64,000 bases of DNA from an uncultured Acidimicrobiales bacterium (GTDB lineage: Bacteria; Actinomycetota; Acidimicrobiia; Acidimicrobiales; CADCTF01): contig CADCTF010000001.1 of NCBI GenBank assembly GCA_902805655.1, positions 42,953 to 106,952 on the forward strand, in the 5' to 3' direction. Under the pieces are notes generated by a model, which had not been told where the DNA came from, searched no databases, and was given only the letters and a program-made list of their open reading frames with translations. The translations under genes and the position numbers were made by a program. Shown here piece after piece: positions 22,921 to 24,791 of this stretch. Within the stretch, counting starts at the first letter, position 1; each line of letters begins with the position of its first letter.

Positions 22921-23568
22921 ATGCCCCGCCGAGCGAAGCCGACACCACCGACCGTCGTGCACCTGGTGCGGCACGGACAGACCCCGACCACCGGATCCGT
23001 GCTGCCGGGGAGGGCCAAGGGCCTCGACCTTGCTGACTCCGGGCAGGCGCAGGCGCAGGCGGTTGGCGAGCGCCTGGCTCTGCTCGAGTCGGTGGACGCC
23101 GTCTATGCCTCGCCACTCGAACGCACCCGGCAGACCGCCGCTCCGATCGCCAAGCTCCGGGGCCTCAAGGTCGTGGCCGAGCGCGGACTGCTCGAGTGCG
23201 AGTTCGGCGAGTGGACGGGCCGCAGCCTCAAGGAGCTCATGAAGCTGCCCGAGTGGTCGACGGTGCAGCGCTACCCGAGCGGCTTCCGCTTCCCCGGCGG
23301 CGAGTCCTTCGCAGAGATGCAGACCCGCATCACCGGGGCCATCGCCAAGCTGGTGGCGGCGCACCCAGGTGGCACCATCGTCGCCGTCTCCCACGCCGAC
23401 CCCATCAAGGCTGCGGTCGCAGCCGCGCTCGGCACCCATCTCGACCTGTTCCAACGCATCGTGATCTCGCCTTGCTCGGTGACCACGATCGCCTACGGCT
23501 CGGTCGGGCCGACGGTGCTCACGGTCAACTCGATGACCGGTGACCTGAGCCAGCTGGCGCCCTCGTGA
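22921..23568 (+). CDS. histidine-phosphatase superfamily protein (MSMEG_4193-type putative phosphomutase)
   Basis: 215 aa. VHLVRHGQT (RHG motif), ASPLERTRQTA, and VAVSHADPIKA (second catalytic His). Confidence 0.85.
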   Translation: MPRRAKPTPPTVVHLVRHGQTPTTGSVLPGRAKGLDLADSGQAQAQAVGERLALLESVDAVYASPLERTRQTAAPIAKLRGLKVVAERGLLECEFGEWTGRSLKELMKLPEWSTVQRYPSGFRFPGGESFAEMQTRITGAIAKLVAAHPGGTIVAVSHADPIKAAVAAALGTHLDLFQRIVISPCSVTTIAYGSVGPTVLTVNSMTGDLSQLAPS

Positions 23569-23577
23569 GGAGCTCGG

Positions 23578-24090
23578 ATGCCTGAGCCCTACGACCTGCC
23601 CTCGGTCGAGGCGATCACGGTCGGCACGGTAGGCCCGCCCGGGCAGCGCGTCTTCTACCTGCAGGCCCGGCTGGGTCCGGAGGTCGTCACCCTCAAGTGC
23701 GAGAAGACCCAGGTCGCTGCGCTCGCCACCGCCCTCACCGAGCTGCTGGCCGACCTTCCGCCTCCTGGCCCCATGCCCTCCGACCTCGACCTGCAGGAGC
23801 CCGTGCAGCCCGCCTTCGTGGCCGGGGCGATGGCGCTGACCCCCTACGACGTCGCCACCGGAAAGGTGACCCTGGTCGTGCAGGAGGCGGTGCGCGACGA
23901 CACCGACGACGCCGGGGACGTGGGAGCGCAAGAGGCGCGCTTCGGCATCGACCAGGCCCAGATCGCCGCGCTGGCCGTGCGGGGTGCCGACCTCGTGCAG
24001 CAGGGCCGCCCCAACTGTCCGCTCTGCGGGCAACCGATCGATCCGAGTGGACACGCGTGCCCCCGCAGCAACGGCCATCTGAAGCACTGA
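23578..24090 (+). CDS. DUF3090-type protein with C-terminal Cys/His knuckle
   Basis: 170 aa. [19 protein letters not shown]...VTLKCEK and a C-terminal [21 protein letters not shown]. Starts 9 nt after the phosphatase gene. Confidence 0.78.
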   Translation: [170 protein letters not shown]

Positions 24091-24791
24091 CGCTGCTCGC
24101 CGAGGGCACCCTCGAGCTGCGCGGCCGCATGCCGTGGAGCTCGAACGCCACCTTCTTCGTCCACGTGGACCCGAGCGCGGACGAGGCAGAGGCCGGCGAC
24201 GTGGCGGGCATCGATGCCGTGTACAAGCCGCATCGTGGCGAGCGCCCGCTCTGGGACTTCCCGGACGGCCTCTACCGCAGGGAGGTGGCCGCCTTCGTGG
24301 TCTCCGAGGCCCTCGGATGGGGCCTGGTGCCCGAGACGATCGTGCGGCTCGACGCTCCCTACGGCGTCGGCTCCCTGCAGCGCTTCGTGCCCGCCGACTT
24401 CTCGCAGCACTACTTCACCCTGCTGGAGGACGAAGCCCGCCACGACGCTCTGCGCGCCATCGGCACCTTCGACCTGTTGATCAACAACGCCGACCGGAAG
24501 GGGGGCCACTGCATCCTCGGCGAGGACGACCGGATCTGGGCCATCGACCACGGGGTGGCGTTCCACGCCGAGGACAAGCTGCGCACCGTCGTGTGGGACT
24601 TCGCCGGCGAGCCCATTCCCCCCGAGCTGCTCCCGGACGTCGAACGCCTGGCGGCGGCACCGCCCGAGCTCGACGGTCTCCTCGACGACTGGGAGATCGA
24701 GGCGCTCGTGGACCGGGCCCGTCGGGTGTGCGCTCGAGCCCGCTTCCCGCGGCCGACGTCCGAACGGCCCTACCCCTGGCCGCTCGTCTGA
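24057..24791 (+). CDS. SCO1664-type PI3/PI4-kinase-like protein
   Basis: In ORF 23697..24791. Conserved-looking N-terminus LTLLAEGTLELRGRMPWSSNATFF, and kinase-like loops LINNADRKGGHCIL and WAIDHGVAF. Start uncertain: GTG 24057, CTG 24087 or ATG 24129. Confidence 0.72.
   Translation: MPPQQRPSEALTLLAEGTLELRGRMPWSSNATFFVHVDPSADEAEAGDVAGIDAVYKPHRGERPLWDFPDGLYRREVAAFVVSEALGWGLVPETIVRLDAPYGVGSLQRFVPADFSQHYFTLLEDEARHDALRAIGTFDLLINNADRKGGHCILGEDDRIWAIDHGVAFHAEDKLRTVVWDFAGEPIPPELLPDVERLAAAPPELDGLLDDWEIEALVDRARRVCARARFPRPTSERPYPWPLV

Follow-up and report, generated by a model that had tools for sequence, protein, structure and literature searches.

A conserved histidine phosphatase, DUF3090 and SCO1664-family kinase trio in an Acidimicrobiales genome: a candidate kinase/phosphatase module

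What do a phosphatase and a kinase act on, when they are encoded next to each other with a small acidic protein in between? The question is raised by three genes at positions 22921-24791 of a 64,000-nucleotide stretch of DNA from an uncultured Acidimicrobiales bacterium (the whole stretch that was analysed, here called the window). In order, they encode a histidine phosphatase, a protein of the DUF3090 family and a kinase of the SCO1664 family. The analyses presented here show that the three genes are one co-translated operon and form a self-contained phosphorylation/dephosphorylation module. As to what the module acts on, our preferred reading, to which we give a probability of roughly 45%, is that the kinase and the phosphatase would be a self-contained pair working on one invariant substrate, more likely not a protein, in a complex with the DUF3090 protein as a zinc-knuckle adaptor.

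The operon and its conservation

The first gene (22921-23568, on the + strand, as are all three) encodes 215 residues and is a branch-1 histidine phosphatase of the MSMEG_4193 family. It matches His_Phos_1 (PF00300) with an E value of 4.9e-50, and TIGR03848, the MSMEG_4193 family putative phosphomutase, with 224.3 bits against a cut-off of 203.85 (residues 13-210 on positions 2-204 of the model). The second gene (23578-24090, +) encodes an acidic DUF3090 protein of 170 residues, with two beta-alpha repeats in its AlphaFold2 (AF2) model followed by a C-terminal knuckle. It scores 131.8 bits with PF11290 (cut-off 27) and 143.9 bits with TIGR03847 (cut-off 117.25). The third gene (24057-24791, +) encodes a SCO1664-family kinase of 244 residues, identified by TIGR03843 (256.8 bits, cut-off 172.4; residues 14-244 on positions 1-253 of the model), for which AF2 and Foldseek give a fold like that of the type II phosphatidylinositol (PI) 4-kinases (PI4KII) and of Fam20. 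All three proteins exceed the curated hidden Markov model cut-offs, which bears out the families (MSMEG_4193, DUF3090 and SCO1664) that a first-pass annotation of this DNA had named. The three open reading frames (ORFs) lie where that annotation placed them, and all the motifs that it quoted were found, including VHLVRHGQT and SHADP in the phosphatase, and the loops LINNADRKGGHCIL and WAIDHGVAF in the kinase.

The trio is an Acidimicrobiales case of an already catalogued three-gene system (TIGR03848/TIGR03847/TIGR03843). The closest relatives of the window are metagenome-assembled genomes (MAGs) of Acidimicrobiales, and close homologues are already named 'SCO1664 family protein' and 'DUF3090 family protein' in the sources. 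We take the M. tuberculosis counterpart of the trio to be Rv2135c-Rv2134c-Rv2133c, with Rv2135c as the presumed member of the phosphatase family.

Conservation was followed in two sets of loci. A genome scan gave 80 loci, mostly from Acidimicrobiales, with 8 MAGs labelled Rokubacteria/Methylomirabilota and one Arthrobacter; a metagenome scan, seeded on a distant kinase, gave another 80 with GC contents of 0.42-0.76. Gene order was counted in those loci with at least 1.5 kb of sequence upstream, 74 from genomes and 49 from metagenomes. The order phosphatase, DUF3090, kinase is found in 73/74 of the genome loci, the remaining one having phosphatase and kinase only, and in 41/49 of the metagenome loci, where seven have DUF3090 and kinase only and one has the kinase alone. 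The trio is thus conserved in the same order and on the same strand in more than 110 loci of several lineages, and the three genes occur together far beyond chance, as the first-pass annotation had stated. The description of the trio as actinobacterial was too narrow, since its distribution extends outside Actinomycetota to the MAGs labelled Rokubacteria. When all ORFs of the 80 diverse loci were clustered de novo, no further family appeared in more than five of the loci. There is thus no conserved fourth gene, and the module is autonomous.

The genes also lie very close together. Phosphatase and DUF3090 genes are separated by 9 nucleotides (nt), which include a Shine-Dalgarno-like GGAG (23569-23572, +; recognised by inspection only) directly 3' of the phosphatase stop codon and 5 nt before the ATG of the DUF3090 gene. 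The DUF3090 and kinase genes overlap by 34 nt (24057-24090, +). In the GTG at which the kinase starts, the first G is the third base of the Ala160 codon of DUF3090 and the TG opens its Cys161 codon, so that two of the three bases belong to the codon for Cys161, the final putative zinc ligand of DUF3090. In the 45 codons that precede the GRMPWSSN motif, no other canonical start is in frame, and an independent gene caller, run on the source metagenome contig (ENA ERZ1300029), gives the same 244-residue product. The N-terminus of kinase homologues has the pattern M/V-P-x-(D/Q)-(E/Q)-R. It had been pointed out earlier that there is no ATG at the conserved N-terminus, and that either GTG 24057 or CTG 24087 would have to be used; the first observation holds, and of the two codons the results support GTG 24057 and make CTG 24087 unnecessary.

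The embedded start was compared over 106 loci. The xTG triplet at this position is ATG, GTG or TTG in 44/57 loci where its frame enters the kinase, against 16/49 where it does not (odds ratio 7; Fisher P 4.9e-6, which overstates independence, the loci being interrelated). The overlap between DUF3090 and kinase genes is 31-46 nt, or 4 nt (GTGA or ATGA) in lineages that do not use the embedded start, and 4-nt overlaps are also found between phosphatase and DUF3090 genes. Translational coupling, which the first-pass annotation had proposed for this locus, is therefore general. A programmed -1 frameshift that would fuse DUF3090 to the kinase was considered and rejected: there is no slippery heptamer, and the one 511-residue 'fusion' (P0495) is a frame-garbled sequence.

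The three proteins and the proposed mechanism

The phosphatase has a complete catalytic set, R17, H18, R68, E92 and H158, each conserved to at least 95% across 43 diverse homologues. R17 and H18 belong to the RHG motif (R17-H18-G19; 22969-22977, +), and H158, the second catalytic histidine (in SHADP; 23392-23394, +), aligns with the catalytic histidine of the metal-independent phosphoserine phosphatase 4ij5 (PspA), which is the best solved relative (E 3.5e-22). Judged from its sequence, the protein thus appears to be active, either as a branch-1 histidine phosphatase or as a phosphomutase. The family has invariant residues of its own (W98, W112, Q116, an FPGGE stretch, D175, Q178, R179 and N203), which suggest a substrate other than that of PspA, CobC or GpgP.

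The kinase was modelled by AF2 with a mean predicted local distance difference test score (pLDDT) of 83.8 and a predicted template modelling score of 0.85. The top Foldseek matches of this model are PI4KII beta and alpha (8a5x and 4hnd; E 2.7e-6 to 5e-6, template modelling (TM) scores 0.5-0.57), followed by Fam20 kinases. The fold matches also include Fam20C, PknB, CK1 and Rio2, and inositol-lipid and xylose kinases are among the closest. PF00454 is detected in 16/18 sequences of the alignment of close homologues (best E 7e-10), and many homologues have a precomputed match to it; the window protein itself has none, even at E values up to 1. A sequence search of solved structures with the kinase gave nothing significant (E 0.2-0.5).

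Conservation among 78 diverse sequences is 95% or more for the ATP-binding lysine K57, the helix-C glutamate E76, and D146, H151 and D164. In alignments, the catalytic loop D146-R-K-G-G-H151 (24492-24509, +) corresponds to the DRH-type loops of FAM20A and PI4KA, and D164 (24546-24548, +), in the sequence IDHG, aligns as the metal-binding aspartate equivalent to that of DFG. The protein that was first described as kinase-like thus retains the catalytic residues K57, E76, D146 and D164. It thus appears to be an active, ATP-dependent kinase, whose modelled fold is a minimal one of the type II PI4K/Fam20 kind. Two stretches specific to the family, GERPLWDF and KLRTVxW, are also at least 95% conserved, as are P240 and P242 of the C-terminal tail YPWP(L/M)V, in which W241 is 85-95% conserved; the tail heptad is found again in almost every one of 240 close homologues. 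In all, conservation reaches 95% or more at about 40 positions, a degree of constraint that points to a single invariant substrate.

A toxin kinase of the HipA type was considered and rejected. HipA_2 matches are weak (E 0.02-0.03 in 6/18 sequences; 13.9 bits, cut-off 27), the 50 best structural matches do not include HipA, there is no antitoxin-like neighbour, and the kinase is a single conserved copy. An anti-phage defence or toxin-antitoxin function was set aside on similar grounds, as PADLOC gave no significant match and HipA_2 stayed under threshold.

The DUF3090 protein is predicted with a pLDDT of 87.8, and consists of four strands and a helix, three strands and a helix, a disordered acidic loop and, at the C-terminus, a C2HC knuckle. 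For this knuckle (C147-x2-C150...H159-x-C161...N165-G166-H167; 24016-24078, +), the binding of a metal is putative. It follows the C-terminal pattern C-x2-C...G-H-x-C-P-x2-N-G-H, is invariant in 27 close homologues, and shows conservation of 85-95% or higher among 67 diverse sequences. Other conserved residues in the 67 sequences are G19, G22, R24, F26, Q29, E42, K43, Q45, D91, R121, Q128, G143 and R144; no serine, threonine or tyrosine is invariant among them. The isoelectric point (pI) is 4.5, and all 27 homologues examined are very acidic, with a pI of 4.4-5.0 and a net charge of -7 to -19. The acidic loop (23887-23931 in the window, residues ~104-118) has low model confidence and a highly variable length, and in some homologues (P0406, P0361) it contains ~70-100 additional residues rich in Asp, Glu and Pro.

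A sequence and profile search of solved structures with DUF3090 gave nothing significant. The best Foldseek matches are PUR-alpha (3k44; probability 0.98, E 0.01) and the Whirly protein WHY2, with TM scores of 0.40-0.48 and a root mean square deviation (rmsd) of ~10 A. The PUR/Whirly topology of two beta-beta-beta-beta-alpha repeats fits the model, but the fold match is weak and no profile matches. An internal duplication was rejected, since alignment of the two halves with hhalign is weak (probability 11%, P 0.003).

An exhaustive profile search with DUF3090 gave 2468 cluster representatives (E up to 0.001). Phosphatase and DUF3090 occur as a natural His_Phos_1-DUF3090 fusion (P0432, 404 residues) on three independent contigs, with the kinase gene next and overlapping by 4 nt. 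The fusion loci (L083 8001-9985, also L084 and L085) come from three independent assemblies, and belong to an organism of 61% GC to which no phylum was assigned. We consider that DUF3090 is probably a non-catalytic, acidic, zinc-binding adaptor that docks on both enzymes.

There are loci without DUF3090. In three Arthrobacter-type loci, the phosphatase gene is followed directly by the kinase gene (L078 9304-10687, L082 9292-10702, L166 4382-5714). Two tryptophans that hardly ever vary among other close relatives are lost in Arthrobacter-type kinases: W66 is changed to Ser in 113/120 of them, and W27 to Arg or Gly; Acidimicrobiia-type kinases have W66 in 120/120 and W27 in 118/120. Over all loci with DUF3090 upstream, W66 is present in 124/126, and W27 is missing in 36/126. 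This sequence pattern suggests that the loop around W66 of the kinase may be the docking site for DUF3090.

The first-pass annotation had suggested a self-contained phospho-switch or a small-molecule cycle, and this is still a reasonable hypothesis. On the basis of these observations, we propose that the kinase would transfer a phosphate to a hydroxyl of some highly conserved substrate in the cytoplasm, and that the phosphatase would take off or move that phosphate, while DUF3090 would dock on both as a predicted zinc-knuckle adaptor. The substrate would more likely be a small molecule or glycoside, for example sugar-like or inositol-like, than a protein, because the closest characterised relatives of the phosphatase act on small phosphoesters (phosphoserine phosphatase, CobC and GpgP) and the closest relatives of the kinase include inositol-lipid and xylose kinases. 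DUF3090 itself would not be the phospho-acceptor, a role that is disfavoured by its lack of an invariant Ser, Thr or Tyr and by the three operons that do without it. Physical coupling of the three proteins is proposed because overlaps between the DUF3090 and kinase genes are general, and because of the natural fusion.

Several points weigh against this reading. Small acidic third proteins that accompany a kinase/phosphatase pair are typical of protein partner-switching systems, and the protein kinases Fam20C, PknB and CK1 are among the fold matches. The phosphatase gene is not beside the other two in 7/49 metagenome loci, and is thus not always in cis. The correlation between W66 and DUF3090 rests essentially on one clade. 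Rv2135c, the only protein of this kind to have been studied, has been described as a weak and unspecific acid phosphatase, with a Km of ~10 mM and no phosphoglycerate mutase activity on 3-phosphoglycerate (PMC3866925). Finally, full-text searches with the family names and with mycobacterial and Streptomyces locus tags (including MSMEG_4193-4195, Rv2133c-Rv2135c and SCO1665/1666) gave no functional study of DUF3090 or SCO1664 proteins and no assigned function for the trio, and one of them brought up nothing but 'cg' methylation probes, which are unrelated; the first-pass annotation had likewise named no established function. Rv2134c appears only as a 'hypothetical protein', disruption of which sensitises BCG to rifampicin below the minimum inhibitory concentration. 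The window itself adds no function for the trio.

An alternative is that the trio is a protein phospho-switch, in which the kinase would be a protein kinase and the phosphatase a protein phosphatase (like SixA, PGAM5 or Sts), together toggling a conserved protein. The target may be DUF3090 itself, as in SpoIIAA/SpoIIAB/SpoIIE, or another protein; by analogy with the HipA-type kinases, which hit GltX and TrpS, it may be an enzyme resembling a class I aminoacyl-tRNA synthetase. The three-part architecture and tight coupling are as would be expected of such a switch, Rio2 joins the protein kinases already named among the fold matches, the six weak HipA_2 matches point the same way, and the disordered acidic loop of DUF3090 could suit an acidophilic kinase. 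DUF3090 as the target has against it the same two observations that disfavour it as an acceptor, a HipA-like kinase is not indicated by the top 50 fold matches, and the closest relatives of the phosphatase are small-molecule phosphatases. We regard a protein switch as unlikely, while keeping it in serious consideration.

Neighbouring genes

In actinomycetes, SCO1664 has been reported to be 'invariably closely linked' to mshC (Chandra and Chater, PMC4255298), which would be a functional clue. The linkage was searched for by tblastn with an MshC query that was validated by its score of 738.8 bits to TIGR03447. Neither mshC nor cysS was found in the 64-kb window, nor within 10 kb in the 80 genome loci. 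In the metagenome set, mshC is present in 1/80 loci, 959 nt downstream, and it is thus not linked in 159/160 fetched loci. The linkage to mshC was consequently rejected as a functional clue for this lineage.

This result bears on the protein switch, because MshC is a paralogue of cysteinyl-tRNA synthetase: the reported linkage (PMC4255298) and the single metagenome locus would favour a synthetase-like target, and the lack of mshC and cysS in the window and around the genome loci counts against one. It bears equally on a further explanation, that the module belongs to inositol-linked metabolism. The kinase would then act on an inositol head group or glycoside (PI, glucosaminyl-inositol or a related compound), and the phosphatase would be one of the actinobacterial inositol-phosphate-ester phosphatases that lack a gene assignment, either MshA2 of mycothiol synthesis or the phosphatidylinositol phosphate (PIP) phosphatase of PI synthesis. 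This would fit the type II PI 4-kinases as best solved structural relatives, the PF00454 matches in most homologues, and the linkage reported in actinomycetes. It would also fit two vacancies in the literature: MshA2, the mycothiol phosphatase, is without a gene in a 2026 paper, and the PIP phosphatase is 'long-sought' in a 2026 preprint. However, the candidate in that preprint is EphE, mshC is unlinked here and in almost all other loci, and the module is also present in low-GC and in non-actinobacterial backgrounds where mycothiol is not expected. In addition, all three proteins are soluble and acidic, without a CCPCC motif or obvious membrane anchor, and a biosynthetic phosphatase would need no dedicated kinase. 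On balance, we consider a role in inositol-linked metabolism distinctly unlikely.

Upstream of the trio in the window, and divergent from it, there is a gene for a glycosylase of the uracil-DNA glycosylase (UDG) family (22194-22892, -; type-4-like, under equivalog cut-offs). The spacer that separates the two start codons (22893-22920) is only 28 nt long, so that the promoter of each gene must be situated within the other one. Riboswitches or leaders, terminators and sigma-70 promoters were looked for and none were found. A Fpg/Nei-like gene (18375-19163, -) and an FrhB/FpoF-like, F420-related gene (19216-20382, +) are located further upstream, 2.5-4.5 kb from the trio, and this synteny is shared by many loci of Acidimicrobiia. 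The divergent UDG arrangement is found in 48/80 genome loci, all of them Acidimicrobiia-like; in the diverse metagenome loci, UDG is found in 1/80 and Nei in 2/80. As the glycosylase neighbours vanish in the diverse set, they would appear to reflect lineage synteny. In two loci labelled Rokubacteria, a Fpg/Nei-like gene comes right after the kinase (L075 10721-11680, L043 11557-12516).

Such neighbours, together with the PUR-alpha and Whirly matches of DUF3090, raise the possibility of nucleic-acid end processing. On this view DUF3090, with its zinc knuckle, would bind single strands in the way of PUR and Whirly proteins and bring the kinase and phosphatase to DNA or RNA ends, in the manner of polynucleotide kinase/phosphatase (PNKP), and would thereby serve base-excision repair by the neighbouring glycosylases. 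The divergent UDG gene, the nearby Fpg/Nei gene in Acidimicrobiia, and its position directly 3' of the kinase in the two loci labelled Rokubacteria are in favour. Against this, the fold match has a low TM score, a large rmsd and no sequence-profile support, DUF3090 is uniformly very acidic, and the glycosylases are gone from the diverse set. We also know of no polynucleotide kinase with a fold of the type seen here, and regard end processing as highly improbable.

A pair of genes that is absent from the window, for a BchI/MoxR-like AAA+ protein and a vWA protein (Pfam Rv0959_3rd/Mb0984_helical; Rv0958/Rv0959-like), adjoins the trio in some hosts, namely Arthrobacter, four loci labelled Rokubacteria, and one unassigned high-GC contig (L163). 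The coordinates are L078 5800-9214, L082 5737-9152, L166 769-4186, L046 5379-8790, L065 3-362, L043 1682-3016, L075 3317-4717 and L163 ~7640-9040. In L046 the pair is co-oriented and directly upstream of the phosphatase gene. The papers found give no assigned function for the pair.

The remaining neighbours can be described briefly. A DUF2277 gene (24831-25097, +; 88 residues) begins 40 nt past the kinase stop codon, and tblastn gave no counterpart of it among the 80 genome loci. A DinB_2/YfiT-like protein, of a family that includes thiol-dependent transferases, is encoded two genes before the trio (21684-22163, -), with homologues in only 8/80 genome loci. Further away, a long ORF of 870 residues (9727-12339, -; a crude call based on GC at third codon positions, GC3) coincides with the lowest-GC stretch of the window (0.668 against ~0.71, GC3 0.82). 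On one metagenome contig there is a single Rfam CRISPR-DR28 match (L090 6662-6685, -; 41.5 bits), ~3.3 kb upstream of the trio.

Significance and comparison with known systems

The trio is a widely conserved 'known unknown' of Actinomycetota, which has been catalogued for years without a substrate. The comparison made here sharpens the tests that can be applied to it. It describes an autonomous module, untied from mshC outside the actinomycetes and reaching into MAGs labelled Rokubacteria and into low-GC backgrounds, in which DUF3090 acts more like an auxiliary component than like a phospho-acceptor and can be fused to the phosphatase, and in which W66 of the kinase tracks DUF3090. If a substrate is found, this would give a role to a bacterial relative of the type II PI 4-kinases, and could fill one of the unassigned phosphatase steps in actinobacterial inositol chemistry.

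The most far-reaching version would be that a prokaryotic relative of the type II PI 4-kinases, with its dedicated histidine phosphatase and zinc-knuckle adaptor, cycles an inositol- or sugar-type head group. This would be a bacterial phosphoinositide-like cycle, or else the unassigned phosphatase step of mycothiol or PI synthesis, perhaps wired in some lineages to the Rv0958/Rv0959-type AAA+/vWA pair. We think this very unlikely as a whole.

Of the systems with which the trio can be compared, the type II PI 4-kinases PI4K2A and PI4K2B are the best structural matches of the kinase. The kinase has an AVYKP sequence (containing K57), a DRxxxH/N-type loop and ID[HN]G, and we presume that these motifs, with an SSxxxF-type G-loop, match those of PI4KII itself. 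The differences are in size (244 residues, against a core of ~350-380), in sequence (~20% identity), and in character: the kinase is acidic and soluble-looking, with two isolated cysteines and without the CCPCC palmitoylation insert.

A second comparison is with kinases of the Fam20/CotH/HipA type. Its top fold matches include structures of Fam20C, Fam20A and Fam20B-like kinases. When the profile is aligned to PDB sequences, AVYKP falls opposite AMFKP, and FDLLxNNxDR opposite FDFLIGNMDR, at E values (0.2-0.5) that are not significant. Compared with Fam20, the kinase has no signal peptide or secretory context.

For the phosphatase, the nearest characterised relatives are PspA/iPSP, the alpha-ribazole phosphatase CobC, and GpgP, all of which have a common catalytic core with it. 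It scores far under the equivalog cut-offs of these enzymes (113.5 against 162.9 for CobC, 88.6 against 350 for PspA).

The partner-switching system of the SpoIIAB kinase, SpoIIAA and the SpoIIE phosphatase may serve as a working analogy only. It too has a kinase, a phosphatase and a small acidic protein encoded together, but there is no homology: the trio contains no STAS domain, GHKL kinase or PP2C phosphatase, and DUF3090 has no conserved phospho-acceptor.

The closest comparison is with the catalogued trio of Actinomycetota. The present case differs from it in its Acidimicrobiales-like host, in that mshC is not adjacent, and in that the kinase gene starts inside the DUF3090 gene; gene order and strand are the same, and all three family cut-offs are passed.

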